A DNA stretch of 42,800 nt, from positions 1-42,800 of the IMG/VR virus record IMGVR_UViG_2703719347_000006; one strand, written 5' to 3'. Positions within the stretch are counted from its first letter, which is position 1; each line of letters opens with the position of its first letter. A program made the position numbers and the translations under genes. The notes beneath the pieces were generated by a model. The model worked only from the letters and a program-made list of their open reading frames with translations, made no database searches and was not told the DNA's origin. Origin of the DNA: a virus (Duplodnaviria; Heunggongvirae; Uroviricota; Caudoviricetes). This document shows positions 1 through 42,800 of the stretch, piece by piece.

Positions 1-1053
1 CTAGTAGTAATGGTCATAACCTCCGCTTTCTCTTCTGGCTCTGGATGCTCTCACTCGTGCTTTTCTTAACATCCTTAACAGCGGGTGGGTTTGTACTTTG
101 TTCGAGTTTATTGTCTGTGAGGATAGTAACTCCCTGCGCTCTGTCTCTGCCTCTTTGGTGACCGCTATCACTGATAAATCCCAATCGTGTTTGCTAATTA
201 ACGGTGCTTGGAACGGGGTGATTGGTGAGCGATTTATGTCTTGTCGTTTCAATGTACGCTGTATCTGTCGCTTAACTTTGTAGTTGTCTTTCCTTGATGC
301 CTGAATGGCTTTTAGTATGCGTCTTACAGCATGAAAGCCAGTGATAGAAAGTGTTTCTTTTTTTATCTCATGCCGCGCCCAGCCATTCGAATAACCCCAA
401 ACGTTGGCATCTGACCAATCATATAGGCTCTTGCTCGCCTCTCTATTAAAGTCATTTAACTTAGTTTCGGGTTTTGCCATGTAATCAATCTGTTTACCTA
501 TACACCTTGTAGGCTCTGAATATTGCTGACCTTTCAAATCTAGATCCCACTGGGGAGGAACATTTGATGGGATTGCATTGTTTGCCAGTGTTACCCATTT
601 GCTGACAATTTTGCCTGCTTGCCCATTAATGCTTCTTTCGTTCACCATAATTATTGCGTGTACATGCGGCTCTGACTGGTGTTGAGCCCACTCCATGACG
701 TAAACCCACTGATTGCCTTTCGAAGTCAACCATCTGGTAAGTGCCTTTAACGCTTTGTTGAATTTCTCTGGCGTTGTTCCCTTAACGGGTCTGAAGGTAA
801 AGGAGTAGGGGATACCACTAGTTGATTCGACATCCAGAGTAAACAAAGCTCGCCTCATTGTACGCCATTTCTTCTTTGTCCAAGCTGGTGGTATGCAGTG
901 GTTAGCCTTTGATGATTGGCGTTTATTCTCCGCCTTTAATTCATTACGTTTGTGCGTAACTGATCTCACATAAGCTAATGTGCGACCATTGATGTGATTG
1001 ATTACGGCTTGTGATTTTGTGGATAGACTCGCGTCTTTATCGTATAATTCCAT
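1..1053 (-). CDS. Rolling-circle replication initiator-like protein (HUH endonuclease motifs)
   Basis: 350-aa ORF; motifs in canonical order FTLDV (motif I), HVHAII (HUH, motif II), DYMAKP (Y-x-x-K, motif III) with about 60-aa spacing; last visible gene of the leftward integrase operon. Confidence 0.45.
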   Translation of the reverse strand: MELYDKDASLSTKSQAVINHINGRTLAYVRSVTHKRNELKAENKRQSSKANHCIPPAWTKKKWRTMRRALFTLDVESTSGIPYSFTFRPVKGTTPEKFNKALKALTRWLTSKGNQWVYVMEWAQHQSEPHVHAIIMVNERSINGQAGKIVSKWVTLANNAIPSNVPPQWDLDLKGQQYSEPTRCIGKQIDYMAKPETKLNDFNREASKSLYDWSDANVWGYSNGWARHEIKKETLSITGFHAVRRILKAIQASRKDNYKVKRQIQRTLKRQDINRSPITPFQAPLISKHDWDLSVIAVTKEAETERRELLSSQTINSNKVQTHPLLRMLRKARVRASRARRESGGYDHYY

Positions 1054-1121
1054 GTGTAAAGTTCATATATTTCAATTGCTTCAAAGCCGACTCTCGCAAA
1101 GTCGGCTTTCTGCTTTGTCAA

Positions 1122-1508
1122 TCACAGGTATTTGGTTTCAATACCCTTGTAAACAGTTCTAAGCGTGTCTTCAGGCACTTTACCCACCAGCCCACGCAAC
1201 AACGACAACGTTATGTTTACCTTACGCAATGTCTTTACATATCTGGCGTTCGTCCTCCAGATCTTCAATGTTTCGTCTTTATCGCTGTGGTATGCTTCTA
1301 AATTGCGTTCTGTGACGTGATACGCCTCTGTTTTAAACTGCTCAACAGGAATTCCCCAATCGTTGCGTAACAGCGTTAAAACGCGACTACGTTCGTGATT
1401 TCCGGCTTTCCTTAATATGTCGTCAAACTCTTTTGGGGTAAGCTTCCTGCCACTTAGTAGGATATCGCGTATATTCGCGGCGACCTGAGAGCGTGTAAGA
1501 GTGCTCAT
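1122..1508 (-). CDS. Hypothetical protein (128 aa)
   Basis: ORF with 4-nt ATGA-type overlap with the upstream 64-aa gene (1505-1508), suggesting coupling; no recognisable motif. Confidence 0.4.
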   Translation of the reverse strand: MSTLTRSQVAANIRDILLSGRKLTPKEFDDILRKAGNHERSRVLTLLRNDWGIPVEQFKTEAYHVTERNLEAYHSDKDETLKIWRTNARYVKTLRKVNITLSLLRGLVGKVPEDTLRTVYKGIETKYL

Positions 1509-1699
1509 TTTCGTCCCCCCAGAAATCTGTCGGCAAATTGATCAAGGCTGGAGGCAAGCCACACCCGGCGCTTGCGTCCATTGATGGTCTGATTTATATA
1601 GGGAGGAAAGCTTCGGATATATCGCTTTAACTGATAGAAGCGTGACAGACAGACGCCAAGATATTCTGCTGCGTCTTTAGCGGTCAGGTAATTAATCAT
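1505..1699 (-). CDS. Small HTH DNA-binding protein (excisionase/MerR-like helix-turn-helix)
   Basis: 64-aa ORF with motif LTAKDAAEYLGVCLSRFYQL typical of HTH_17/excisionase-type DNA-binding domains. Confidence 0.4.
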   Translation of the reverse strand: MINYLTAKDAAEYLGVCLSRFYQLKRYIRSFPPYINQTINGRKRRVWLASSLDQFADRFLGGRK

Positions 1700-1780
1700 T
1701 TTATTCCCTTACTGTTGTACCAAAATGTAATATGGAGGAGACTTCCTGTCTCCCCAAATTACTCTACAATTTTTGTGCGA

Positions 1781-1972
1781 TTAAATCAGATCTATTACTA
1801 AGTAATCATCGCCAGAGGCAATGCCGATAGCTTTTCCACCGCTGGTGGATTTCACATCATAAACCCAGGTGCTGGTGCTCACCTTTTGTGGCTCTGATCT
1901 AATCAGTGCCGCGAAGGTTTCAAAATCAACATGGGTTACGTTCAGCTTTTGATTGGTAGGTTTCAACTGCAT
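1781..1972 (-). CDS. Hypothetical protein (63 aa)
   Basis: Short ORF co-oriented with neighbours; no motif recognised. Confidence 0.3.
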   Translation of the reverse strand: MQLKPTNQKLNVTHVDFETFAALIRSEPQKVSTSTWVYDVKSTSGGKAIGIASGDDYLVIDLI

Positions 1973-2020
1973 TCTTAATACCTAATAACGTATTGTTTGT
2001 ATCCTGTTTGTTTCTGTTCT

Positions 2021-2212
2021 TTAGTTACTACGCGATTCGGCTATACGTTGATCGATCCAGTCATCGATCTCGCTTTCAATAAAAGCTATTGCGCGAGCAC
2101 CAATCTTGACTGATTGGGGGAATTGTCCTCGGCTCATCAGAGCATATACCCACGCCTTGCTATAGCCAGTGCGTTTCAAAACCTCAGATAGCCGAATCAG
2201 CGACTTTTTCAT
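2021..2212 (-). CDS. AlpA-family transcriptional regulator (P4 Vis-like)
   Basis: 63-aa ORF; sequence LIRLSEVLKRTGYSKAWVYALMSRGQFPQSVKIGARAIAFIESEIDDWI matches the AlpA/Vis small HTH family pattern; downstream of a P4-type integrase. Confidence 0.6.
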   Translation of the reverse strand: MKKSLIRLSEVLKRTGYSKAWVYALMSRGQFPQSVKIGARAIAFIESEIDDWIDQRIAESRSN

Positions 2213-2368
2213 ATCTACCTCGTAATACGTTGCTTGACTATGTGAGATAGTAAATCATTGTTTTTTTAAGTTTTCTGTGAATTTGGAGAAAAAATTTTTG
2301 GGAATAGAATTACCCCAAATTGGGCGTTATTTTTTAGTTCTAACGCACAATTTGGGAACATCCTTCCT

Positions 2369-3115
2369 TTATTTTGGACGCTTTTTGGTTGCTTTTTTCT
2401 TAAATTTGGGGGCGTACTTATCCAAAGCGTTCGTTAGCAATCTCCGAAATGTATCTGGGTGGGTATCGCTGTCTTCATCGTTCCCGAATATTATGTTGTT
2501 TTCTATTACTTGGGCACTAACCCTATTGATACTAAGGTTTCCTCCACTATGGAAATCTTTGCTTGATTCAAATAAGGCAATCGCCATTCCGGCGATCATC
2601 TTTAAAGCCGTATCTTTTCCTCTCCAGTTTTGTTCTCTTTCTACTTTTTTTGACAGTGCTCCAATTTCTGGTTCGTTATCTGGAACATTCATATCCAGTT
2701 CTGGGAAGAAGTTCACAACCTCGGAGCGCTTGAAATAAAACGAATCGTAAGACCCATACCAATCATCCTCATCATCGTGATATAAAAAGTCTTCCCCTTT
2801 CCTAACGTTGAAAGTCCCTTCTTCCCCCGGTATCGGGCTCTCCCTGTATTCATGCCCCATAGCCAGAAGACCTAAAAACTCCACACACTGCTTTTCAAAG
2901 TCGTCATTAGTTGTAAAACCTGATACCCAATCGAACTGATAAAAGCCCAGCCCCCCTAAAGTATCTGGTTTAGCTTTGCTCAATCTGTAGTTACTTAAGA
3001 TAGCGGCAGCGATCATTCTTTCATTTTCATTGTTTAGTCTTGCCAGTTCGCTGATCAGATTACCAAACCAGATTTTATCTTCTGACTCGTTATAAAACGC
3101 ATCTAGTCCTGTCAT
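2369..3115 (-). CDS. Acidic hypothetical protein with basic C-terminal tail, translationally coupled to integrase
   Basis: ATG at 3115-3113 lies 1 nt after the integrase TAA stop (3119-3117); 248 aa from this ATG (ORF track gives a GTG start at 3124); D/E-rich core, C-terminal KFKKKATKKRPK; AT-rich by eye. Confidence 0.5.
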   Translation of the reverse strand: MTGLDAFYNESEDKIWFGNLISELARLNNENERMIAAAILSNYRLSKAKPDTLGGLGFYQFDWVSGFTTNDDFEKQCVEFLGLLAMGHEYRESPIPGEEGTFNVRKGEDFLYHDDEDDWYGSYDSFYFKRSEVVNFFPELDMNVPDNEPEIGALSKKVEREQNWRGKDTALKMIAGMAIALFESSKDFHSGGNLSINRVSAQVIENNIIFGNDEDSDTHPDTFRRLLTNALDKYAPKFKKKATKKRPK

Positions 3116-3116
3116 C

Positions 3117-4403
3117 TTAGTCACGGCGTGTTCTCCTTCCGAACTCGTAAGGGCTTATATGTATTTCTCGATTGGCGTCCAGATAATCTGCCCACCATTG
3201 AAGCATTAGTTTGCGCTCTTCTAAGTAATCAGCCTTGTGCTTGTAGGCTCTTTTAACGTCTTTATATTCTTTGTGGCTCATCTGGCGCTCTACTGCGTCC
3301 TCCTGCCACAAACCGGACTCCATCAGGGAACTACAGGCTGTGGCACGGAATCCATGTCCAGTTACGTCCTCTTGCGTGTTATAGCCCATTAAGCGTAATG
3401 CCTTGTTTACCGTGTTTTCACTCATCACGCCTTTGGTGTTTCTTTCATTCGGAAACACAACATCGTAGCTTCCGCTTAGTTCTCTCAACTGCTTTACAAT
3501 AGAAACAGCCTGACGGCTAAGAAGCACGATATGTTCGTCTTTTCCCGTTTTTGTGCCACGGGTGGAAAACCTCACACCATCGATAGGCTCTCTTTTTTTA
3601 GGGATAATCCACTCAGCCCGATCAAGGTCAAACTCTTTCCAACGGGCAAACCTTAACTCGCTTGAACGAACAAATGTCAACATGGTTAGCTCAATGGCAA
3701 GGCGGGTAAGAGGATTACCTTTAAAGCTGCCCAATCGAGTGAAAAAGTCTGGTAAATCTCTGGGATGTAGTGCGGCATGATGCTTAGTTTCATATTGCAT
3801 TAACCGGACATCGAGATCATTCGTGATGATTTCTGTCTTAATGCCGCTCAGACGGGCGCTATGTATGATGTCCTTAACTCGTTGTTTAAGTCGGTTGGCT
3901 GTATCGTGTTTCCCGGCGTCATCTACCTTCTTAAACAAAGGTAAAATTGTCATCGCCTCCAGTTTGCGAATATCCGAAGTGCCAATGTGAGGGAAAATAT
4001 ACATTTCAAGGCTTCTAAGTACGCGTTTTCGTTGGTCTTCGTTCCACATCTGGTGGCTTTCAACCCATTGACGTCCTATTGTCTCAAAAGTGAATGCGCC
4101 TTTTTCTTCTGCTTTTGCTGCTCTTTGCTCTGCTTTGGGATCTATCCCCTTGACTAACAACTTTTTGGCGTTGTCTCGTTTTTCTCTGGCGTCTTGTAAG
4201 CTAATGGTTGGATATACACCAAAAGCAAGTCTGTCTTCTTTCTTATCTGATGGGCGGCGATACTTCATTCGCCAATACTTCGACCCGGTCTGGGATACTT
4301 CAAGATAAAGACCACCACCATCAGACAATTTATAAGTTTTGTCTCGTGGCTTAGCTGCTTTGCACTGACGGTCTGTTAATTTGTTGAGGGTATTTCTGGA
4401 CAT
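3117..4403 (-). CDS. int: Tyrosine integrase, P4-type (arm-binding N-terminal domain)
   Basis: 428-aa ORF; N-terminus KLSDGGGLYLEVSQTGSKYWRMKYR typical of P4/CP4-57-type integrases; C-terminal catalytic region with HGFR...Y. Confidence 0.85.
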   Translation of the reverse strand: MSRNTLNKLTDRQCKAAKPRDKTYKLSDGGGLYLEVSQTGSKYWRMKYRRPSDKKEDRLAFGVYPTISLQDAREKRDNAKKLLVKGIDPKAEQRAAKAEEKGAFTFETIGRQWVESHQMWNEDQRKRVLRSLEMYIFPHIGTSDIRKLEAMTILPLFKKVDDAGKHDTANRLKQRVKDIIHSARLSGIKTEIITNDLDVRLMQYETKHHAALHPRDLPDFFTRLGSFKGNPLTRLAIELTMLTFVRSSELRFARWKEFDLDRAEWIIPKKREPIDGVRFSTRGTKTGKDEHIVLLSRQAVSIVKQLRELSGSYDVVFPNERNTKGVMSENTVNKALRLMGYNTQEDVTGHGFRATACSSLMESGLWQEDAVERQMSHKEYKDVKRAYKHKADYLEERKLMLQWWADYLDANREIHISPYEFGRRTRRD

Positions 4404-7211: not shown

Positions 7212-7835
7212 CTATGCGGCCTCGGAAGGAAGTCCAATCATCTTATTCAAATCTTCTACCCGTAAAGCAGGAAGTGCTGTACTTGCTTTATCTGCTTCTT
7301 CTGGTAGCAATTCTTTGCTTTCAGGCCAAACTTCAATAAGTCGCTTAACTGTTGTGACTGAGTTCAAAGCAGCCCATACATTTGATTCGATATCCTTTTT
7401 CTTGGCTTCAAGTTTTTGTTGCAATGCGCAGATTTCATCAAACCTTTTTGTTATTTCGTGTTCTGCGCTAAACATGCATTTATCTTTGGTCGGAGTAGGG
7501 AGCAATATATCTTCGCCGTTGCCGTCTTTCCCATATGAATGCCATCCAACCCTTCTGCCAGATACAGTCAGATAAATTGAAGTAGAACTAACATCGTATG
7601 AGTAAAATGAACATCCCATCTTTTCAAGTTCTTCACTTATAGCTACCAACTTGGATGATAACTGATCCACTTCCTCAGTTTTCTTTTTACCGCCAAACGC
7701 AATAACTCTGGCGTCAAGTGCAAGCTGGTTCTTTAACTTTGTTACTTCTTTAAGTTCAGTGAAAACCCCAGACTTAATTAAAGCGTTACGAGCGATTTCC
7801 TCTTTCATTCTCGTAGTTAAGCGGATTGATGACAT
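7212..7835 (-). CDS. Hypothetical early-left protein (207 aa)
   Basis: ATG at 7835 with GAGGA RBS, 11 nt after the N stop; the track's TTG start at 7895 would overlap N and is rejected. Confidence 0.5.
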   Translation of the reverse strand: MSSIRLTTRMKEEIARNALIKSGVFTELKEVTKLKNQLALDARVIAFGGKKKTEEVDQLSSKLVAISEELEKMGCSFYSYDVSSTSIYLTVSGRRVGWHSYGKDGNGEDILLPTPTKDKCMFSAEHEITKRFDEICALQQKLEAKKKDIESNVWAALNSVTTVKRLIEVWPESKELLPEEADKASTALPALRVEDLNKMIGLPSEAA

Positions 7836-7846
7836 ATTAATTCCTC

Positions 7847-8173
7847 TCAAATAAGTGGTTTGCTGCCTAATTTCATTTTCTGGCGACCAACACAAGTCAC
7901 ACCCATTTCACTGCGTGGCTTGCTGTACCATGTGCGCTGATTCTTGCGCTCAATACGTTGCAGGTTGCTTTCAATCTGTTCGTGGTATTCAGCCAGCACC
8001 GTAAGGTCTATCGGATTCAGTGCGCTTTCTACTCGTGATTTCGGTTTGCGATTCAGCGAGAGAATAGGGCGGTTAACTGGTTTTGCGCTTACCCCAACCA
8101 ACAGGGGATTTGCTGCTTTCCATTGAGCCTGTTTCTCTGCGCGACGTTCGCGGCGGCGTGTTTGTGCATCCAT
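7847..8173 (-). CDS. N: Antitermination protein N
   Basis: 108-aa ORF beginning MDAQTRRRERRAEKQAQWKAANPLL (arginine-rich motif); matches lambda N as recalled; preceded by nutL. Confidence 0.9.
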   Translation of the reverse strand: MDAQTRRRERRAEKQAQWKAANPLLVGVSAKPVNRPILSLNRKPKSRVESALNPIDLTVLAEYHEQIESNLQRIERKNQRTWYSKPRSEMGVTCVGRQKMKLGSKPLI

Positions 8174-9647: not shown

Positions 9648-10307
9648 TCACCCAAACGTCTCTTCTGGCCACTGGCTGGCGATAACTTTCCCTACAACGG
9701 AACAGCTATCATTGCATGGGATCATTGGATATTGCGGGTTTAGTGGTTGTAGGAACACCTGACCGCTATCCCTGATCAGTTTCTTGAAGGTAAACTCGTC
9801 ACCACCAAGTCTGGCTATGCAGAAATCACCTGGCTCAACAGCCTGCTCAGGGTCAACGAGAATTAACATCCCGTCAGGAAAGCTTGGCTTGGATCCTGTT
9901 GGTGCGGTCATGGAATTACCTTCAACTTCAAGCCAGAACGCACAATCACTGGCTTTTTTGGTTGTGCTGACCCATCTCTCCGCATCACCTTTCGTAAAGG
10001 TTCTAAGCTCAGGCGAGAACATCCCGGCCTGAACATGAGAAAAAACAGGGTACTCATATTGTTTTTTAACGGGGGCAGATGAGTATTCGCCAACAGGTGA
10101 AAATGTACCGTCGTGGTTGAATGAGACGTTATCAATACCAAGGTATTTAAACACCACACCAATCTCGTCAAGAGATGGATGACGAGATCCGCGCAACCAG
10201 TGACCAATTCCACCCTGCGTCATACCAAGCTCTTCAGCTAACTTCTCTTGAGTTATGCCGAGCTCTTTCATTCTGGATCTAGCCAGTTCATACCATTTCA
10301 TTTTCAT
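9648..10307 (-). CDS. cI: cI-type prophage repressor (HTH N-terminal domain, LexA-like S24 C-terminal domain)
   Basis: C-terminal half [21 protein letters not shown]...[15 protein letters not shown]...FTFKKL matches lambda cI as recalled; N-terminal HTH differs; start at 10307 or 10301 preferred because the track start 10370 falls inside the pR -35. Confidence 0.85.
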
Positions 10308-10316
10308 ACCCTTATT

Positions 10317-10331
10317 ATTACGCTCTGTACT
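10317..10331. promoter_or_regulatory. Putative operator site (oR, cI-proximal)
   Basis: ATTACGCTCTGTACT shares the 13-mer TACG-N5-GTACT with sites at 8447-8459 and 10377-10389. Confidence 0.45.
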
Positions 10332-10364
10332 AAAACCATCCACGCACAAGATGTATTTTTTTGT

Positions 10365-10393
10365 TTGCATTCTAAAAGTACATATCGTATTAT
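10365..10393 (+). promoter_or_regulatory. Putative pR promoter with embedded operator
   Basis: -35 TTGCAT (10365-10370), 17-nt spacer, -10 TATTAT (10388-10393); operator-like 13-mer at 10377-10389 lies in the spacer. Confidence 0.5.
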
Positions 10394-16808: not shown

Positions 16809-16883
16809 GGGTCAGTCGTATAAAGGTCATTACGGAAGGCTGTTAACCTTCTTATCGTGGTTCGAGTCCACGCTGTCCCGCCA
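16809..16883 (+). tRNA. tRNA-Asn (anticodon GUU), by manual cloverleaf folding
   Basis: 75 nt: acceptor gggtcag/ctgtccc (one mismatch), anticodon stem gaagg/ccttc, loop ctGTTaa, T-arm cgtgg-TTCGAGT-ccacg, discriminator g and CCA. Confidence 0.6.
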
Positions 16884-16888
16884 AATAT

Positions 16889-16964
16889 GCTGGTTTAGCT
16901 CCAATGGTAGAGCAGTCGCCTTGTAAGCGAATGGGTAGCGGTTCAAGTCCGTTAACCAGCACCA
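16889..16964 (+). tRNA. tRNA-Thr (anticodon UGU), by manual cloverleaf folding
   Basis: 76 nt: acceptor gctggtt/aaccagc, D-arm gctc/gagc with GG in loop, anticodon loop ctTGTaa, T-arm agcgg-TTCAAGT-ccgtt, discriminator a and CCA. Confidence 0.7.
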
Positions 16965-35570: not shown

Positions 35571-36766
35571 TGGCTCTGAACCTTGATTCTCTTGGTTTAT
35601 CTGCAAAGGTAACCGCAGAGGGGATCAGTGCGCCTGATTATCAGACGATACTCAGCACCCTGATTAGCTATTTTCAGCAGATTTATGGCAGTGATGCCTA
35701 CCTCGAACCGGACAGCAAAGACGGCCAGATGGTCGCTCTGGTGGCTCTGGCCATTCACGATGCCAACAACACGGCCATTTCTGTTTACCGGTCATTTTCT
35801 CCGTCGACGGCGCTGGACGATGCATTAACCAGTAACGTCAAAATTAACGGCATCACTCGCCGTGCTGCGACAAACTCTACGGTCGATGAGCTGATTGAAG
35901 GCGAAGCCGGAACGTTGATCACAAACGGGTCTGTGAAAGATGCCAACGGTATCATCTGGAATCTTCCTGCTCAGGTGACAATTGGTATTGATGGGACGGT
36001 TATTGCTACAGCGACGTGTTCTGTTGCTGGTGCTGTGGCGGCCCCTGCCGGGTCAGTCAATAAGATAAACACCCCGACACGTGGCTGGGTATCAGTAACT
36101 AACCCTCAAGCGGCTACCGTTGGCGTTGCTGCCGAAACAAATGCTGAATTGCGTGTCCGGCAATCACAGAGCGTTGCTTTACCATCTCTGACGCCGTTTG
36201 AGGCGGTAGATGGTGCGATAGCAAATATCAGCGGCGTAACGCGACACAAGCTGTATGAGAACGATACAGATACCACTGATGCAAATGGCCTGCCGCCGCA
36301 CTCAATCGCGGCCATTGTAGAAGGTGGTGATGCGACAGTCATTGCGAACAGCATTCGTGGTGTGAAAGGGCAGGGCGTAACACCCTACGGTAGTACGGTG
36401 ATTGTTGTGCCTGATAAGTACGGAAACCCTCACCCGGTAGGTTTTTCAAGGCCGGTCGATGTACCCATTTACGTCAAAATCACTATCGAGCCCCTTACGG
36501 GTTACACATCCCAGGTCGGCGAAGAGATAAAGGCGGCTGTATCTGCCTACATTAACTCTCTGGCAATCGGCGCCAGCGTTCTTCTCAGTCGCGTTTACTC
36601 ACCGGCTAACCTTGGTGTTGTCAGTGGAGGTAATGCCAGGTATTACGACATTACCGAGTTGCTGATCGGGACGTCTGCCGGTGGCGTAGCCGCGGCAAAC
36701 GTGGATATTGCCTTTGACCAGTCAGCATCCTGCGCCGTCAGCAATATTAATCTGGTGGTCTCATGA
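35570..36766 (+). CDS. Baseplate J-like protein
   Basis: 398-aa ORF between W-like and I-like genes. Confidence 0.5.
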   Translation: MALNLDSLGLSAKVTAEGISAPDYQTILSTLISYFQQIYGSDAYLEPDSKDGQMVALVALAIHDANNTAISVYRSFSPSTALDDALTSNVKINGITRRAATNSTVDELIEGEAGTLITNGSVKDANGIIWNLPAQVTIGIDGTVIATATCSVAGAVAAPAGSVNKINTPTRGWVSVTNPQAATVGVAAETNAELRVRQSQSVALPSLTPFEAVDGAIANISGVTRHKLYENDTDTTDANGLPPHSIAAIVEGGDATVIANSIRGVKGQGVTPYGSTVIVVPDKYGNPHPVGFSRPVDVPIYVKITIEPLTGYTSQVGEEIKAAVSAYINSLAIGASVLLSRVYSPANLGVVSGGNARYYDITELLIGTSAGGVAAANVDIAFDQSASCAVSNINLVVS

Positions 36767-37536
36767 GCAGATACACTGACCGCATAACAAACTACCACGC
36801 CGGTAAACCAAAGTTCTTTGCCCACGTCGACCTGTCCACCAGGCCACTGAGTGATGTTTCCGATGCCATGTCACGGCTAATACCCGATTTTGACATTGAT
36901 ACCGCCGTAGGCGTGCAACTCGACGTTGTGGGCGAATGGGTTGGTCGTTCCCGTCGCGTGGCTACACCGGTAACCGGGATTTATTTTTCGTGGGACACCG
37001 AACGGGTTGGCTGGGACCAGGGGATTTGGCAGGGACCATATGACCCAAACGACGGTTTTATCGATCTAAGCGATGAAATATATCGGCTAATTCTGAAGGT
37101 GAAAGTGGCGATAAACAACTGGGATGGTCAGAACGATTCGCTGCCTTCAATTCTTGATGCCGCCCTTGCCGGGTCCGGGATCCGCATGGCTATTGTCGAC
37201 AACCAGGATATGTCGATTTCTATCTGGATACTCGGTGACCCATCGGTAGCCCTAAGTGAAATAGACCGGTTAATTCTGGATAGCGCCGTCAATAAAGGCC
37301 CCTTTATCGCATTACCGGCAGGTTACGTACCATCGCGCTATGACATTAACCCGATTGACCAGGTTAACAGCGAGCTATGGTGGGCGATTCAAAACGGTTA
37401 TATGACGGTTAAGGCCGCCGGAGTTCGTGTCCGTGAAATAGAGACCGTCAGTGATGGTTATCAGTTTTTTGGCTTCGATATCGAAAATGACTATATCGCT
37501 GGTTTCGACCGCGGGTCATGGGGAGAGAGATTTTAA
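36763..37536 (+). CDS. Baseplate/tail protein I-like
   Basis: 257-aa ORF; its C-terminal two-thirds has a paralog at 41825-42300. Confidence 0.45.
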   Translation: MSRYTDRITNYHAGKPKFFAHVDLSTRPLSDVSDAMSRLIPDFDIDTAVGVQLDVVGEWVGRSRRVATPVTGIYFSWDTERVGWDQGIWQGPYDPNDGFIDLSDEIYRLILKVKVAINNWDGQNDSLPSILDAALAGSGIRMAIVDNQDMSISIWILGDPSVALSEIDRLILDSAVNKGPFIALPAGYVPSRYDINPIDQVNSELWWAIQNGYMTVKAAGVRVREIETVSDGYQFFGFDIENDYIAGFDRGSWGERF

Positions 37537-37673
37537 TGGCGACTAACGATTTTAAGCGCTTCGCTACTGGTAGTGGGGCAAACGTATTATCTCAGGCAGA
37601 CTATGAGTCACTATCTGCCCTGGCATCAGGGAAGGGCGCTAACGGCTATGTCATCATTGAGGAGTACGCATAA
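37536..37673 (+). pseudogene. Truncated tail-fibre N-terminal remnant (45 codons)
   Basis: MATNDFKRFATGSGANVLSQADYESLSALASG aligns with the N-terminus of the fibre ORF starting at 42300, then diverges and stops. Confidence 0.45.
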
Positions 37674-37870
37674 TGGCAGGTAATTACGCAGTCATTGAAA
37701 GTGGAATAGTTAAAAACATCATAATTGCGGAAAGCGGTTATGAATATGATGGTGCTGAACTTATCGAATATCCTGAAAGTGTATTTTGCCAGCCTGGGAT
37801 GTTTTATAACAAGGCAGACGGGCTATTTTACGATGATAAAGAATATTCAAAAATAAATAGCAAGAATTAA
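37673..37870 (+). CDS. Hypothetical protein (65 aa)
   Basis: ATG overlaps stop of the fibre remnant; followed by a terminator. Confidence 0.35.
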   Translation: MAGNYAVIESGIVKNIIIAESGYEYDGAELIEYPESVFCQPGMFYNKADGLFYDDKEYSKINSKN

Positions 37871-37928: not shown

Positions 37929-39788
37929 ATGAGTGAATACGATACCGGCAATCCTGTGCCGTCTGCATCCATGCCTGATGCATGGGATAATATGCAGTCT
38001 ATTGACAAGTTCGTTAATAGCAGTGATGAAACCATTACCACACGCACAGGCAAACAGTTAGATACTTTGCATGGCGTTAATGTTAAAGCGGACAACCAGC
38101 TAACGCAGCAGCAAGCAGATTTTGAAACATCGCAAGAAGAAAGGGATGCTGTAGTTGAGGAAACCAGGCAAAACCTGATCCCTCTGAGCAAGCAATACAT
38201 GACGCTTGCTGATGCACAGGCAGATATTGCTAATATCCCTGCGGGAAGTGCCACTTATTACCGCAGCCCGGATGATAGCGCGCTGGCTATTGAGGTAATC
38301 AATAACGCCGGGACGTTACAACCTACCGGACGAAAAATGCCATCCATGGACAGCATCATTTCGGCTTTGGGTGTGTACTTCGACGGTAGCAACCCAGACC
38401 TGCTGATTGGCTTTAAAGACGTGGATAACAAAGTTTTCGCGGCATGGGACCTGTCGGGAAAATATATTGGGGATCTGGAGTATGCGTCATTTGATGAGAC
38501 GGGACGGATGATTGCAGATCTGGCAGTGCTGGGTGATATGCAGATAAGCCAGGCGTATCAGAACCCGGATGTAGCTATGTATATCCTCGATGATGATGGG
38601 CTTGTGCTGCTGGAGGTCCCATTCGTCGAGTCGCAGAGCGACGTCAACGAGGAAATAGAGGCAATCAATACCAGGCTGGATGTGTTTGTTCGTGATGACG
38701 GCATTTTAAAGTCGGAGTTTTACGGCCTCAATTTCATGTCGGAGACACGTCGCGCATTGATGATGGCAGAAGCTAAGGAGGGGCAATTTGTCATCAATAT
38801 CATTGGGAACTCGTGGGTAGCTAACGAGTGGAACCTTCCGCGTCGTTTAACTCAGGTCCTGCAAGACCGATTCGGTGATGCAGGCGCCGGATTTGCTGGT
38901 TACAACCGTAACTTTGCCCATCCAGGACGTGCATTTCTAGCGATTCAATCGGGAACGTGGACTGAGGAGACTGTTACGACACCTACAGCCACAAACTTCG
39001 GCCCGGCTGGCTCACAGGGGATCACCTCTACCGCAGGTGCCTCTATGGCATTCCAGTCTCTGACTGGTGATACCTCAGCGGCTATCTACCACAATGGCAG
39101 CTCCAGCGTCAGCCCTGTAATCAAAATCAAGTACAAGGACAATGTCACGGGCGACCAGACTGCTGAAACACAGGTTACCCTTTCTGGTACGGGTGTAGTC
39201 AGAACTGAGTTGCCCGTACCGCCTGTGACAGGAAACTGGACGGCTACGCTGACGCTCGTTTCAGGAACACTGGCGTTCTGTGGCATCGAGCTGAAAAAAA
39301 GTACCCCGGGTGTTCGTGTCAATAAATTAGGTACTGGCGGCTCTACCTGGCGGCAATGGACAACCCTGAACCGTGCCGGGTGGGTGCAGGGCATCACGCC
39401 GCTGGCGGCAAACCTGAATATCCTGCTGGAGTCCGTCAACGGCGCGTACAGCTACGATGCCGACTACGAGGCGACCTATACAACGGAAATGGCATCACGC
39501 GTGAGGTCAGCCTCTGCCTTCAGCGACGTTCTGGTTATCTCGCCACCACAAACACTGGGCACACCAACCTACTCGTTACGCGACTTCGCATACAAGCTGA
39601 GAGGTATCGCTGGCTCTATTCAGGCAGGGCATATCGATCTGCAACAGGTTTTCGGACAAAACATCGCAGAGTATACGGACAATGGGAAGCGCTACATCCT
39701 GTCATCAGATGTAAACCATCCAACATATCCCGCCGGGCAATGCGTTATTACTGAAACTGTACTCCGCGCCATCCTTTCTGCTTTTTAA
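37929..39788 (+). CDS. Tailspike/tail fibre with C-terminal SGNH-hydrolase-like (esterase) domain
   Basis: 619-aa ORF; block-I-like INIIGNSW and block-V-like DVNHPTY (D-x-x-H) near the C-terminus. Confidence 0.5.
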   Translation: MSEYDTGNPVPSASMPDAWDNMQSIDKFVNSSDETITTRTGKQLDTLHGVNVKADNQLTQQQADFETSQEERDAVVEETRQNLIPLSKQYMTLADAQADIANIPAGSATYYRSPDDSALAIEVINNAGTLQPTGRKMPSMDSIISALGVYFDGSNPDLLIGFKDVDNKVFAAWDLSGKYIGDLEYASFDETGRMIADLAVLGDMQISQAYQNPDVAMYILDDDGLVLLEVPFVESQSDVNEEIEAINTRLDVFVRDDGILKSEFYGLNFMSETRRALMMAEAKEGQFVINIIGNSWVANEWNLPRRLTQVLQDRFGDAGAGFAGYNRNFAHPGRAFLAIQSGTWTEETVTTPTATNFGPAGSQGITSTAGASMAFQSLTGDTSAAIYHNGSSSVSPVIKIKYKDNVTGDQTAETQVTLSGTGVVRTELPVPPVTGNWTATLTLVSGTLAFCGIELKKSTPGVRVNKLGTGGSTWRQWTTLNRAGWVQGITPLAANLNILLESVNGAYSYDADYEATYTTEMASRVRSASAFSDVLVISPPQTLGTPTYSLRDFAYKLRGIAGSIQAGHIDLQQVFGQNIAEYTDNGKRYILSSDVNHPTYPAGQCVITETVLRAILSAF

Positions 39789-39797
39789 GGTACTTTT

Positions 39798-40697
39798 ATG
39801 ACAACTATTTTTCAGGCACCAGTTCCAAGCAATAACCCAGCGCTGCAGTATGCGGTGCCAGATAACCTCTTGAAAGGGTACGGGACGAAAGAGGGGACTA
39901 CTGATGGGGTATATCTGTTCCGCCTCGATGACAAACGATCGTTTCCTCTACAGGCCGCGCCGACGAGCAATGCTGAAGGCGCAATCGTGAATCTGGCTGA
40001 TAGTGTTAGCGCGCAGGCATCCCTTGGTGGCGACGTGTCTGCATTCGTGTGGAACGGAACACGTAAATCACTGGCGATGAACAGTAAAAGCGCACCGTGT
40101 TACCTGCAGAGCGCCAGTAACTTTATGGCCCGATTTGATGCCACCACCCACCCGTCGAAACTCCAGTATTTTGCGCTTGGAATGTACGTGCGTATTCCGT
40201 CAGCTGATGATTTTGTCGCGGTCAGTACCAACTACTCAGGTATCTGCGGGACGGCGGAATCCCTGACACCGGCAAACGAGTTTGGCGGAATTGCTTTCAC
40301 TAACGTTAACGGCACAAAGGCGATCAATGCCATTCGCGGGACTGACGGCGGCGCGCTGCGCACAGTAGCTGTCCCGGCGACTAATTTCCTCGGCAAAGTG
40401 TGCCTGGTCGTCGTCTACCGGGACGCCGCAGGGATGCACCTCTATGTCGAGGCAACCGACGGGACAAAGGCTTCTGCGATGACCGCGATTGCGAATGTCC
40501 CTGTTTTGACAACGACCATGACCAGCCGGAGCCTGAAATTCGGCGTTACTGGTTTTTACTCCGGTAGCCTCGTCTATAAACATGAGTTTTTTGGCGGCTG
40601 GTTAATCGACCTGGAAACTATCACCGTTTCTGATATCCCTGCGTTTGCATCTGCCGACCTGGCCAGACAGATCGCCAGAGGGTGGATGACAAGCTAA
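39798..40697 (+). CDS. Hypothetical protein (299 aa) downstream of tailspike
   Basis: ORF 10 nt after the tailspike stop; no motif recognised. Confidence 0.4.
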   Translation: MTTIFQAPVPSNNPALQYAVPDNLLKGYGTKEGTTDGVYLFRLDDKRSFPLQAAPTSNAEGAIVNLADSVSAQASLGGDVSAFVWNGTRKSLAMNSKSAPCYLQSASNFMARFDATTHPSKLQYFALGMYVRIPSADDFVAVSTNYSGICGTAESLTPANEFGGIAFTNVNGTKAINAIRGTDGGALRTVAVPATNFLGKVCLVVVYRDAAGMHLYVEATDGTKASAMTAIANVPVLTTTMTSRSLKFGVTGFYSGSLVYKHEFFGGWLIDLETITVSDIPAFASADLARQIARGWMTS

Positions 40698-40777
40698 AAA
40701 CCATTGTGTGTTAATTTGTTGTCTGCCTGAAATGATTTTATCTGTCAGCCAACTATTGATCTGCCACTCACTTAAAA

Positions 40778-40797
40778 CTACTGTATATAAAAACAGT
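40778..40797. promoter_or_regulatory. LexA (SOS) box
   Basis: TACTGTATATAAAAACAGTA: CTGT-N8-ACAG with AT-rich spacer, 20 nt upstream of the 79-aa ORF. Confidence 0.7.
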
Positions 40798-40816
40798 ATT
40801 TATCGGAGGGCAGATC

Positions 40817-41056
40817 ATGCTTAGGCAGTCAGACATCGCCGCGGCTTTCCGCGAGTCCATTTTGCGCAGTTCCAAGGGGTTCCAGTACCTTCACACCCGC
40901 GACTTCGTTACTGCGCTTCGCCGGCGCGGCATTCATTTTACCGAGGTGGAGGCTAACGCCTGGATCGCTCGCGAGCAGACGTATTTTGTCGATAAGACGC
41001 CTGACCATAGCGAAAACAGGCTGTGGATGATGGCCAACATGGGGAGGGTGATCTAA
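40817..41056 (+). CDS. SOS-regulated hypothetical protein (79 aa)
   Basis: ATG 40817 with GGAGGG RBS just downstream of the LexA box; overlaps the next gene (TAATG). Confidence 0.45.
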   Translation: MLRQSDIAAAFRESILRSSKGFQYLHTRDFVTALRRRGIHFTEVEANAWIAREQTYFVDKTPDHSENRLWMMANMGRVI

Positions 41057-41373
41057 TGGGCTTTCCTTCGCCGGCGTCAGACTACGTTGAGCAGCGTCTG
41101 TCTGTTAACTCGATCTGCAATGTAGGCCCAAACACGCTAGTTTTCGAGCGTTCTGGTGGTTACGTTGTACTGGATATCTCCCTGAAGCCAAAGCAGGGTA
41201 GTCAGGTTCTGATCCAGCACGGCGGCGGGACGGAGCTTGCCACGCTGAGAGGGCGGTCGCTGATAACCGAAGATGGCGAAGCAATTGAAGGTGAGGCCTT
41301 GGATGATGTCACTGTCGCAGGCGTCGTGACGCACATCATTTGTGATGTGCGAAGCGATAGCCTGGCGGTTTAA
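41056..41373 (+). CDS. UmuD'-like protein (HumD-like, lacking the RecA-cleavage N-terminus)
   Basis: Starts MGFPSPASDYVEQR, aligning with UmuD from Gly25; catalytic Ser and Lys of UmuD appear replaced (SGGYV, ATLRGR). Confidence 0.65.
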   Translation: MGFPSPASDYVEQRLSVNSICNVGPNTLVFERSGGYVVLDISLKPKQGSQVLIQHGGGTELATLRGRSLITEDGEAIEGEALDDVTVAGVVTHIICDVRSDSLAV

Positions 41374-41547
41374 CAATGAAAGAGTGGTGCGCACCGTAAC
41401 TACAACAAGTATGTCCGCAGTTATGGTGCGATACCTTGCGGGTTGAGTAAACGGCCAGTGTTCATTTCTGGATATCTGCTCGCAGATCTTGGCATCTAAG
41501 GAGGTAGCGCAGATGGAACCTGACCCTGGAAGAGTTCGCGTAATGGC

Positions 41548-41820
41548 TTACTGGACTGCACGACCATCGATGTAATCAGCCCACCACTGCATCATCTACC
41601 TGCGCTTATCGAGATACTGAGCATGGTTGTAAATCCCGCGCACAGATCCGCCGTTGGCATGTGCCAGTTGCACTTCAATGGCGTCGGCAGGCCATTCGTG
41701 CTCGTTCATAATCGTGCTGAATTCATGCCTGAATCCGTGACCGCTTTCCAGACCTTCATAGCCGATTTGTTTGATCACAAGCAATACCGCGTTCTCGCAG
41801 ATTGGCTTCTTCTTATCGTT
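41548..41820 (-). pseudogene. Integrase remnant (C-terminal catalytic region only, with in-frame TAG)
   Basis: HGFRHEF...LAHANGGSVRGIYNHAQYLDKRR then TAG (41598-41596), then in-frame MMQWWADYIDGRAVQ to TAA (41550-41548); homology begins abruptly near 41820. Confidence 0.6.
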
Positions 41821-42300
41821 GAGCCAATTAGCGGCGTTTATTTCAGCTGGGACACTGACGGGCTCGGATATGACCAGGGCATCTGGCAAGGGCCATATGA
41901 TCCTGATTCTGGCTATACGACGCTAAGCGATGAGACGTACCGCATCATTCTGAAAGCGAAGATTGCGATTAATAACTGGGACGGGCGGAACGACTCGCTG
42001 CCACCAATTCTGGACGCTGCAACTGCTGGCTCTGGCCTGAAGATGCAGATCGTCGACAACCAGGACATGACGATATCGGTCTGGGTGTTCCCTGAGACTG
42101 ATATTTCTGATGTGTCTCTCGAACTGATCGCCGCTATCAAACAGGGCTATCTCACCGTTAAATCAGCTGGCGTATGGGCCGGTGATGTTGAAACGCCTTC
42201 GGTAGAAACACCGTCAGAAGGCTCTAAATTCTTTGGGTTTGATATGGATAACGAATACATCGGCGGGTTCGATGTTGGAGCATGGGGGACAATACTCTAA
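41623..42300 (+). pseudogene. 5'-truncated paralog of the gpI-like gene, fused to unrelated upstream sequence
   Basis: Residues from about 68 onward (GVYFSWDTDGLGYDQGIWQGPYDP...) parallel 36763-37536; the first ~67 codons are antisense to the integrase remnant. Confidence 0.45.
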
Positions 42301-42800
42301 TGGCAATAAACAACTTTAAACCTTTCGCGCTTGATCCGAACGCTAACGTCACCTCACAAGCTGACTGGGAAGCACTTCCGGCTCTGCTTTCAGGGTTTAC
42401 GGCAGGTAAAGCATCCAGCGCACAGGTCAACAAAGCTATTCGGCAAGCCAGCTTTATCGCGGCAGCGTTGGCGCAGTACACCGCCAACAAAAGCGGGCTG
42501 GATGTGCTTGATGATGGAGACCTGAACGGGTTTATATCCAAAATGGGGACCGCTTTCGGGAAGGATTTCCAGGCCCTTGATGCCACGCTGACGGCATTAG
42601 CTGGGCTGGAAACCGGTGCAAATAAACTCCCGTATTTCACTGGAAATGATACAGCTGCGCAGACTGATTTGACTTCTGTTGGCCGTGACATTATCGGGAA
42701 AAAGACTATTGCTGACATTCTCACATACCTTGGTTTGGGAGAAACGATAAATAAAGCCTCCGGAGCTATGCAGAAATCGGCTAATGGATCTGATATTTCT
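42300..42800 (+). CDS. Tail fibre protein, N-terminal part (runs off the window)
   Basis: Frame open from ATG 42300 to the window end; N-terminus MAINNFKPFALDPNANVTSQADWEALPALLSG. Confidence 0.55.
   Translation, partial: MAINNFKPFALDPNANVTSQADWEALPALLSGFTAGKASSAQVNKAIRQASFIAAALAQYTANKSGLDVLDDGDLNGFISKMGTAFGKDFQALDATLTALAGLETGANKLPYFTGNDTAAQTDLTSVGRDIIGKKTIADILTYLGLGETINKASGAMQKSANGSDIS

Follow-up and report, generated by a model that had tools for sequence, protein, structure and literature searches.

The 42,800-nucleotide stretch of viral DNA analysed here (IMG/VR record IMGVR_UViG_2703719347_000006, positions 1 to 42,800; hereafter called the window) belongs to a temperate phage of the Caudoviricetes and carries a two-gene operon after its tail-fibre genes. 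The features described below suggest that this operon is a LexA-repressed bicistronic accessory locus, or moron, of a temperate enterobacterial phage. Its first gene, orf79 (40817-41056, plus strand), encodes 79 amino acids that are predicted to form a stand-alone winged helix and belongs to PHROG 3893, a family annotated as of unknown function. The second gene (41056-41373, plus strand) encodes a minimal UmuD′-like protein of 105 amino acids (PHROG 3469), which starts at the equivalent of the UmuD cleavage site, has no Ser-Lys catalytic dyad and falls in a group of homologues here called the short clade. On balance it is somewhat probable that this protein is an SOS-induced, cleavage-independent factor acting on host UmuC/UmuD, i.e. 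on DNA polymerase V (Pol V), the direction of the effect being left unspecified.

The N-terminus of the 105-residue protein reads MGFPSPASDYVEQR, and its M1-G2FPSPA aligns without gaps to G25FPSPA of UmuD, so that the protein begins directly after the position of the Cys24-Gly25 cleavage site, as an earlier note made from the letters of this DNA had proposed. A phmmer search of the PDB returned UmuD and UmuD′ only (1.6e-5), with residues G2-L43 placed ungapped on UmuD G25-I66. The HumD profile of NCBIfam (NF051876) was matched with 51.2 bits (E-value 1.2e-13; residues 1-101 on profile positions 1-121 of 129), and PHROG 3469, named 'UmuD-like protein', was matched with an E-value of 6.9e-46 (residues 1-102 on profile positions 1-102 of 106). 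By tblastn, HumD of phages P1 and P7 and gp26 of phage N15 were reached at 34-36% identity over 95% of the length. A phmmer search of 1.84 billion representative sequences yielded 203 clusters at 50% identity (E-value of at most 1e-3), mostly of 98-112 amino acids. Conserved throughout this family are the N-terminal arm MGFPSPAxDYxE, a short helix with L-x-[LV]-[ND], a hairpin with G-[YFW]-A and the motif LITxDGEAIEGEALDDVxVxGVVT, in which V-x-G-V-V-T corresponds to UmuD L125-I132. A mechanically called open reading frame (ORF) of 116 amino acids starting with GTG at 41023 was rejected as the gene, since all homologues begin at MGFPSPA.

An AlphaFold2 model of the 105-residue protein, built on 30 diverse family members, showed an all-beta S24 architecture with a predicted local distance difference test score (pLDDT) of 79.6 and a core above 85. 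The best matches of this model in a Foldseek search of the PDB were the UmuD′ structures 1I4V, 1AY9 and 1UMU at template modelling (TM) scores of 0.57-0.64, and the top 15 matches consisted of UmuD′, the C-terminal domain of Mycobacterium tuberculosis LexA and the C-terminal domain of lambda CI, at modest E-values (2.5e-3 or higher). By this comparison the model has the S24 beta-fold, with TM scores up to 0.64. Taken with the alignments, the protein appears to retain the dimer core of UmuD′, consisting of the N-terminal arm, the helix and the C-terminal beta-strand.

UmuD was aligned with 101 UmuD′-like proteins from IMG/VR, of which 33 are long and of the HumD type (120-135 amino acids) and 68 are short (98-112 amino acids); the window protein falls in the short clade, and P1 HumD and N15 gp26 fall in the long one. 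In all 68 short-clade sequences the 11 residues of the Ser60 loop (UmuD 58-68, GDSMIDGGISD) are deleted, and the window protein also misses the equivalents of UmuD residues 107-111. Lys97 of UmuD corresponds to Ala62 of the window protein in an ungapped stretch that starts from the conserved Gly83/Gly48. No Lys occurs in this column of the short clade, which holds Ala in 41 sequences, Gly in 20, Val in five, and Ser and Phe in one each. The Ser-Lys dyad is thus retained in none of the 68 short-clade sequences. The earlier note had claimed that both catalytic residues were substituted: the absence of the dyad and the replacement of the Lys are borne out, and Ser60 proved not to be substituted but to have gone with its loop. 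Its further expectation, that loss of the dyad is a trait shared with HumD, did not hold, since in the long clade the Lys97 column has Lys in 23/33 and Arg in 5/33 sequences, Ser or Thr stands in the Ser60 column of 28/33, and the RecA contacts are kept.

These contacts are known from a cryo-electron microscopy study of the RecA-UmuD complex, in which the filament contacts Y52, V54 and F94 (pocket) as well as D91 and E93 (acidic patch) of UmuD (PMC9926225). At the same positions the window protein has L, F and T in the pocket and G and G at the acidic sites, and the short-clade consensus has R, I and T, then G and R, whereas Y, M and F, then D and E, are found in the long HumD clade. The short clade may be regarded as a further-reduced derivative that has the arm and dimer core of UmuD′ and, to judge from its residues, no catalysis; it probably also lacks UmuD-style docking in the RecA groove. 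Because the Ser60 loop is deleted, Lys97 is replaced and the protein starts at the cleavage site, it is predicted that the 105-residue protein neither cleaves nor needs cleavage.

The C-termini of these proteins were also compared. HumD-type proteins end in [DE]FDD[CNS]P[VC][IM], and most short-clade proteins finish with acidic residues and then P-[VTIA]-[IMV]. The window protein ends in RSDSLAV (41350-41373), the Pro being lost as in Klebsiella-type relatives (…DSLAV, …DNAVV). The acidic-Pro tail, which is not present in Escherichia coli UmuD, resembles the C-terminal tip of the single-stranded DNA-binding protein (SSB), DFDDDIPF, a peptide on which many proteins of replication and repair dock.

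A LexA (SOS) box of 20 nucleotides, TACTGTATATAAAAACAGTA (40779-40798, plus strand), precedes orf79, as had been noted before, and differs from the 20-nucleotide LexA consensus TACTGTATATATATACAGTA at two positions; all of its 20 bases are the same as in the operator located 5′ of umuD in the umuDC operon of E. coli K-12. It is the single LexA-consensus-like site in the window, and none of 100 shuffled sequences yielded any such site; the core CTGT-N8-ACAG likewise occurs once, with 0.5 occurrences expected. The left half of the box, TACTGT, would form the -10 element of a promoter, and a -35 hexamer, TTGATC (40756-40761, plus strand), lies exactly 17 nucleotides 5′ of it. The arrangement of TTGAT[CA], 17 nucleotides and TACTGT was found in 7/7 homologous phage loci inspected, namely those of the Klebsiella phages RothC and RCIP0114, the E. 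coli phages HK140, mEp390 and Eeyore, the Erwinia phage Eho59 and the Cronobacter phage phiES15, and TTGAT[CA] stands at equal spacing also in two IMG/VR loci, L020 and L030. Because the geometry of -35, -10 and box is conserved in these homologous loci, TTGATC-17-TACTGT is assigned as a putative sigma-70 promoter, the -10 of which would be occluded by LexA. A generic sigma-70 promoter scan called no promoter at the operon because TACTGT matches TATAAT at only three of six positions.

In order to sample homologous loci from IMG/VR, a degenerate DNA pattern for MGFPSPAxD[YF] was used, and 111 complete UmuD′-like genes with sufficient upstream sequence were obtained; the invariance of MGFPSPAxD[YF] is circular in a sample found by this pattern, and arm conservation was taken from the independent alignment. 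The core CTGT-N8-ACAG is present at most 330 nucleotides upstream of 95 of the 111 genes. The distance from box to UmuD′-like gene amounts to 272-283 nucleotides where orf79 is present and mostly to 33-41 nucleotides where it is not. Downstream, an imperfect inverted repeat with a stem of about 16 bp and no U-tract (41386-41435, plus strand) lies directly 3′ of the operon, and the RNA fold of 41366-41480 reaches -35.2 kcal/mol (z -2.0). This repeat is a possible terminator, or possibly a recombination or arm-type site. An Rfam scan of 40500-41900 returned no RNA family.

The Shine-Dalgarno sequence of orf79, GGAGGG (40805-40810, plus strand), was read off the sequence six bases upstream of the start, and the leader GGAG.GCAGATC-ATG is conserved in relatives. 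Consistent with the overlap of the two genes reported earlier, the ATG of the 105-residue gene shares one base with the stop codon of orf79 (TAATG). The Shine-Dalgarno sequence of the second gene, GGGGAGGG (41041-41048, plus strand), lies seven nucleotides upstream of its start and within the C-terminal codons of orf79 (MGRV). The G-rich Shine-Dalgarno sequence and the TAATG overlap are conserved in close relatives, one relative having TGATG instead; the arrangement indicates that the two genes are likely to be translationally coupled.

The structural model of orf79 is a stand-alone winged helix with a pLDDT of 90, the topology H1-b1-H2-H3-b2-b3 and structural likeness to known winged helix-turn-helix domains; a fold search of BFVD returned only an orthologue and generic helix-turn-helix proteins. 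Scans of Pfam, NCBIfam and PADLOC gave no match to orf79, those of PHROGs gave PHROG 3893 only, and a sequence search of the PDB returned nothing. The third helix reads EVEANAWIARE, with A46, N47, W49 and I50 invariant. Being acidic and hydrophobic rather than basic and polar, this helix would be atypical for DNA recognition, and a protein-binding role of orf79 appears at least as likely as DNA binding. A profile search gathered 760 clusters at 90% identity, every named one of which is from Enterobacterales. The label 'DNA polymerase V', carried by a few of these clusters, apparently stems from the neighbouring gene, because no polymerase similarity was found. Membership of orf79 in the DinI/ImpC family was considered and rejected: tblastn with DinI of E. 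coli and of phage HK140 detected no dinI in the window, and the predicted topology differs.

The association of the two genes was quantified in the IMG/VR sample. In the short clade 48 genes are accompanied by orf79 and 21 are not, in the long clade 11 are and 24 are not, so that 45/104 UmuD′-like genes lack it. The product of orf79 is therefore a frequent but dispensable partner, tied preferentially to the short clade (48/69 against 11/35). In view of the coupling and the co-occurrence of the two genes, the suggestion in the earlier note that the 79-residue protein might interact with the UmuD′-like one is a reasonable conjecture. From the side of orf79, 68 close loci with enough downstream sequence comprised 56 with an intact short UmuD′-like gene, three with a truncated one and nine with none. 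In some orf79 loci without a UmuD′-like gene, from Raoultella and Klebsiella, orf79 forms an in-frame fusion with C-terminal serine-invertase fragments (Resolvase/HTH_7). The locus L020 has promoter, box, leader, the ATG of orf79, TAATG and MGFPSPA in this order, and in the near-identical locus L030 promoter, box and leader lead straight into ATG-GGA-TTT (MGF...) with no orf79. Hence orf79 is a precise cassette, which is missing from start codon to start codon in L030, and it is considered dispensable because L030 keeps the promoter, the box and the UmuD′-like gene without it.

Among 60-odd close IMG/VR relatives the median ratio of nonsynonymous to synonymous substitution rates (dN/dS) was about 0.08-0.10 for both genes (0.10 for the 105-residue gene) at dS values of 0.4-0.8. 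It follows from a dN/dS of about 0.1 that both genes are maintained as proteins under purifying selection. Of 5,426 complete E. coli genomes, 216 gave a match to the module, and in 95 of these the match covered at least 80% of it. At the protein level there are several hundred clusters at 90% identity, those with a named source coming chiefly from Klebsiella, and the closest phage relatives of the module are temperate phages of Klebsiella at 81-91% identity.

P1 HumD and N15 gp26 are known examples of pre-processed UmuD′ homologues that temperate phages encode under LexA control and with no umuC, and members of the short clade already bear the label 'UmuD-like' in PHROGs and in some phage records. 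The HumD-type proteins of P1, P7, N15 and phiKO2 (gp23 in the latter; NF051876) are likewise phage-borne without an adjacent umuC, and the window agrees with this, since tblastn with E. coli UmuC gave no hit in it, as anticipated by the earlier note. Both types begin with MGFPSPA at the position of the UmuD cleavage site, have a LexA box in the promoter region, where binding is predicted, and occupy the same genomic slot in lambdoid phages; in P1 the annotated LexA site lies 20 nucleotides upstream of the humD start, and HK140 pairs a HumD-type gene with an orf79 homologue. The LexA box of P1 serves both humD and the divergent gene lxr. The window protein differs from HumD in being about 24 residues shorter (105 against 129), in having no [DE]FDDxPx[IM] tail and, like the rest of the short clade, in having lost all of the features that the HumD type mostly keeps, i.e. 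K/R97, the S/T60 column, Y52, D91, E93 and F94. Because it falls below the curated HumD and S24 thresholds, it was not assigned to HumD proper and seems to be a distinct variant from a separate, more degenerate clade. The literature search found no paper reporting that the Ser60 loop, Lys97 and the RecA contacts are missing from the short clade, and none describing orf79. HumD complements UmuD′ according to the GenBank annotation of P1, and it is referred to as a functional UmuD′ homologue facilitating SOS mutagenesis in the title of McLenigan 1999, as cited in PMC11541004.

With E. coli UmuD′ (1UMU, 1AY9, 1I4V) the window module shares the arm GFPSPAxDYVEQR, the VxGVV strand and the umuDC operator. 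E. coli UmuD′ arises by RecA*-stimulated autocleavage of a 139-residue precursor (Ser60-Lys97) and is encoded together with umuC, whereas the window protein is a direct product, about 10 residues shorter, with no dyad, no RecA-groove residues and no umuC. Another operon that bears comparison is impCAB of plasmid TP110. ImpC is DinI-like, unlike orf79, which models as a winged helix, and impA is a cleavable full-length UmuD homologue that is followed by the umuC-like impB, unlike the gene in the window. Like the window operon, impCAB is of the SOS type, with a small gene of about 80 codons before the UmuD-like impA. A paper on impCAB is cited in PMC11541004. In Gram-positive bacteria YolD/YqjX, a minimal non-catalytic SH3-like beta-core, has been proposed as a UmuD′ stand-in for a Y-family polymerase (PMC6511836). 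YolD is evolutionarily distinct and encoded with a polymerase, whereas the window protein is a true, though degenerate, UmuD homologue that has no polymerase gene beside it.

The course of events would then be as follows. In the undamaged lysogen LexA would sit on the operator overlapping the -10 element and keep the operon off. Upon DNA damage, RecA*-induced cleavage of LexA would switch the operon on, and two translationally coupled proteins would be made. Removal of Met1, which is followed by Gly, would leave the exact UmuD′ N-terminus GFPSPA..., and the 105-residue protein would dimerise via the retained helix and the C-terminal strand. By analogy with P1 HumD, the dimer may engage host Pol V via UmuC, which the phage does not encode, or via host UmuD/UmuD′. 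The checkpoint of RecA* cleavage would be bypassed in this way, so that translesion synthesis would be at once under the control of the induced lysogen or phage, and orf79 would be an optional accessory, a regulator or an adaptor. A role as UmuD′ surrogate leads among the models because of the homology with HumD. The protein may be constitutively active, as the earlier note expected of it, and may equally well be inhibitory or regulatory. Several points weigh against the surrogate role. The 105-residue protein lies below the curated NCBIfam cut-off for HumD (120 bits) and has no hit to Pfam Peptidase_S24 (PF00717) even at an E-value of 1, its likeness to UmuD beyond the first 42 residues is weak, and the AlphaFold2 model is moderately confident, with arm and tail below 65. 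The RecA-contact residues Y52, V54, F94, D91 and E93 are not kept, E93 being most often replaced by Arg in the short clade, so that any step in which RecA activates a Pol V-like complex may differ. Furthermore, the model leaves the role of orf79 unexplained.

Several other readings have to be weighed against a surrogate role. It is possible, if rather unlikely, that the protein is a dominant-negative or anti-mutagenic modulator which forms heterodimers with host UmuD/UmuD′, in the way that UmuD pairs with UmuD′, or titrates UmuC into inactive complexes and thereby damps Pol V mutagenesis during replication of the induced phage. The elements of the dimer (arm, helix and C-terminal strand) are kept and the catalytic and RecA-docking features are gone, which would suit such a role, as would the clearly greater degeneration of the short clade compared with the functional HumD type. 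In HK140, mEp390 and Eeyore the orf79 and UmuD′-like genes are moreover divergently paired with a phage dinI across one SOS-box region, and DinI limits RecA-mediated processing of UmuD. DinI and UmuD share the RecA groove (PMC9926225). However, there is no dinI in the window, and the long HumD type occurs in the same locus, sometimes with the same orf79, while HumD is reported, by the title cited above, to promote mutagenesis. More speculatively, and with similarly low expectation, it may be proposed that the short clade, often together with orf79, is not a Pol V subunit but an SOS-phase effector. Its non-cleavable S24-fold dimer would bind host S24 proteins (UmuD, LexA, phage CI) or their partners via the GFPSPA arm and retune mutagenesis or prophage induction, with orf79 as DNA- or protein-targeting adaptor. 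Such binding would be made possible by the invariant GFPSPA arm, which is the P′ side of a UmuD/CI-type cleavage site, and by the loss of the RecA contacts.

A different arrangement, in which the winged helix of orf79 and the S24-like dimerisation subunit together form one 'split', non-cleavable LexA/CI-like factor made only during SOS and acting on phage or host promoters or on repressors, is judged improbable. The order of a winged helix followed by an S24 domain from the cleavage site mirrors LexA, the genes are joined by TAATG, and the linkage counts given above (56/68 orf79 loci with an intact short UmuD′-like gene; 48/69 against 11/35) fit such a unit. Homology of orf79 to the N-terminal domain of LexA was nevertheless rejected on sequence, with an hhalign probability of 0.2% and no hit to PF01726, the putative recognition helix is acidic and hydrophobic, and orf79 is precisely absent from close relatives with the same promoter as well as from 45/104 UmuD′-like loci. 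The likeness of GRVI-M-GFP at the gene junction to the LexA motif GRVAA-GEP is best explained by the G-rich Shine-Dalgarno sequence within the last codons of orf79 and is missing in the Erwinia and Cronobacter homologues. Still less probable is that orf79 is a small LexA-controlled antirepressor or induction factor comparable to GfoA/GftA of the Gifsy phages, Tum of phage 186 or AntC of N15, and that the UmuD′-like gene is merely co-transcribed. Small LexA-regulated antirepressors do occupy SOS accessory loci of enterobacterial prophages, often by dinI (PMC3121763), and orf79 is a small gene of unassigned function that comes first behind the LexA box. Like the window operon, the loci of Gifsy-1/2/3, 186 Tum and N15 AntC are small-gene loci with a LexA box outside the immunity region, and the E. 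coli relatives of the window operon have an adjacent dinI, as antirepressor loci often do. On the other hand, these loci have no sequence relation to the window operon, which has UmuD′-like cargo and a phage with a CI of its own (9648-10370, minus strand; helix-turn-helix and full Peptidase_S24 domain, 1e-28) that should be RecA-cleavable by itself. A repressor-matched antirepressor is not expected because orf79 travels with very different immunity regions, those of lambdoid Klebsiella, E. coli, Erwinia and Cronobacter phages, and orf79 is dispensable in close relatives. Finally, decay of the locus into a functionless umuD fragment with a spurious upstream ORF is very improbable. The failure at curated family thresholds, the two internal deletions and the truncated or fused relatives (UmuD′-like products of 42 or 95 amino acids; orf79-invertase fusions) would agree with decay, but it is contradicted by the selection analysis (dN/dS of 0.08 and 0.10 at dS 0.4-0.8). 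The lengths of 79 and about 105 amino acids are also held across genera down to 30-50% identity, the fold models are moderately to highly confident, and SOS box, Shine-Dalgarno sequences and coupling are conserved.

With regard to the surrounding genome, the temperate phage carries genes for CI, CII and O-like and DnaB-like replication proteins and a long late operon. The late operon ends in baseplate and tail-fibre genes, the last of which is followed by the SOS operon. The same slot, between the tail fibre and the attachment site and integrase gene (att/int), is used in RothC, RCIP0114, HK140, mEp390, N15 and the Erwinia and Cronobacter phages. The 3′ end of the HK140 UmuD′-like gene overlaps the annotated attP, and integration could therefore alter the C-terminus of the gene product.

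The last 8 kb of the window match the E. coli EJN001 chromosome at 99.9% identity, and in that chromosome both genes are annotated as 'hypothetical protein' and the block adjoins intS and a tRNA-Arg gene; E. coli as a species carries umuDC. Window and EJN001 differ by an indel of about 194 nucleotides at 37597-37792, upstream of and into the start of a tail-fibre ORF of 619 amino acids (37929-39788). Immediately downstream of the operon an IntS-type integrase gene is represented by its 3′ end alone (41576-41889, minus strand; 97-codon ORF; Pfam Phage_integrase, 1e-14), of which 41576-41825 is 96-97% identical to int of HK633 and intS of EJN001. From about 41830 up to 42800 the sequence continues with another, incomplete copy of a DUF2612 gene and with different tail-fibre genes; the first DUF2612 copy lies at 36763-37536, and its part 36986-37227 is 72% identical to 41841-42084. 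Because int is truncated and the partial second DUF2612 gene follows from about 41830, the block of tail-fibre gene, orf79, UmuD′-like gene and truncated int appears to be a cassette that entered the tail region of a resident prophage by recombination.

A full-length tyrosine integrase (Arm-DNA-bind_3, Phage_int_M and Phage_integrase domains) is encoded at 3117-4403 on the minus strand, left of the early region, and its C-terminus is unrelated in sequence to the integrase fragment at 41596-41889. No att-type direct repeats (exact, at least 12 nucleotides) were found between 1001-3200, left of this integrase gene, and 41301-42800. Elsewhere in the window, phage-borne genes for tRNA-Asn(GTT) and tRNA-Thr(TGT) were located at 16809-16964, a gene for an Nmad5 (nucleotide-modification-associated) protein at 7212-7895 (minus strand) in the early left operon, and one for a REP_ORF2-G2P-like replication protein at 1-1053 (minus strand) at the left edge.

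Error-prone Pol V is normally delayed by the RecA*-cleavage checkpoint, which pre-processed UmuD′ homologues of phages would bypass. An active short clade could allow lysogens that carry it to begin mutagenic translesion synthesis sooner once an antibiotic has induced the SOS response, with consequences for the evolution of resistance; an inhibitory one would represent a phage-encoded brake on host mutagenesis. In either case the locus adds, with orf79, a widespread small protein of predicted winged-helix fold that its box would place under SOS regulation and that has no assigned function. Moreover, the short clade may be viewed as a natural 'minimal UmuD′', in which arm, helix and C-terminal strand stay when catalysis and RecA docking go, and as such it may be useful for mapping the still unsolved interface between UmuD′ and UmuC.

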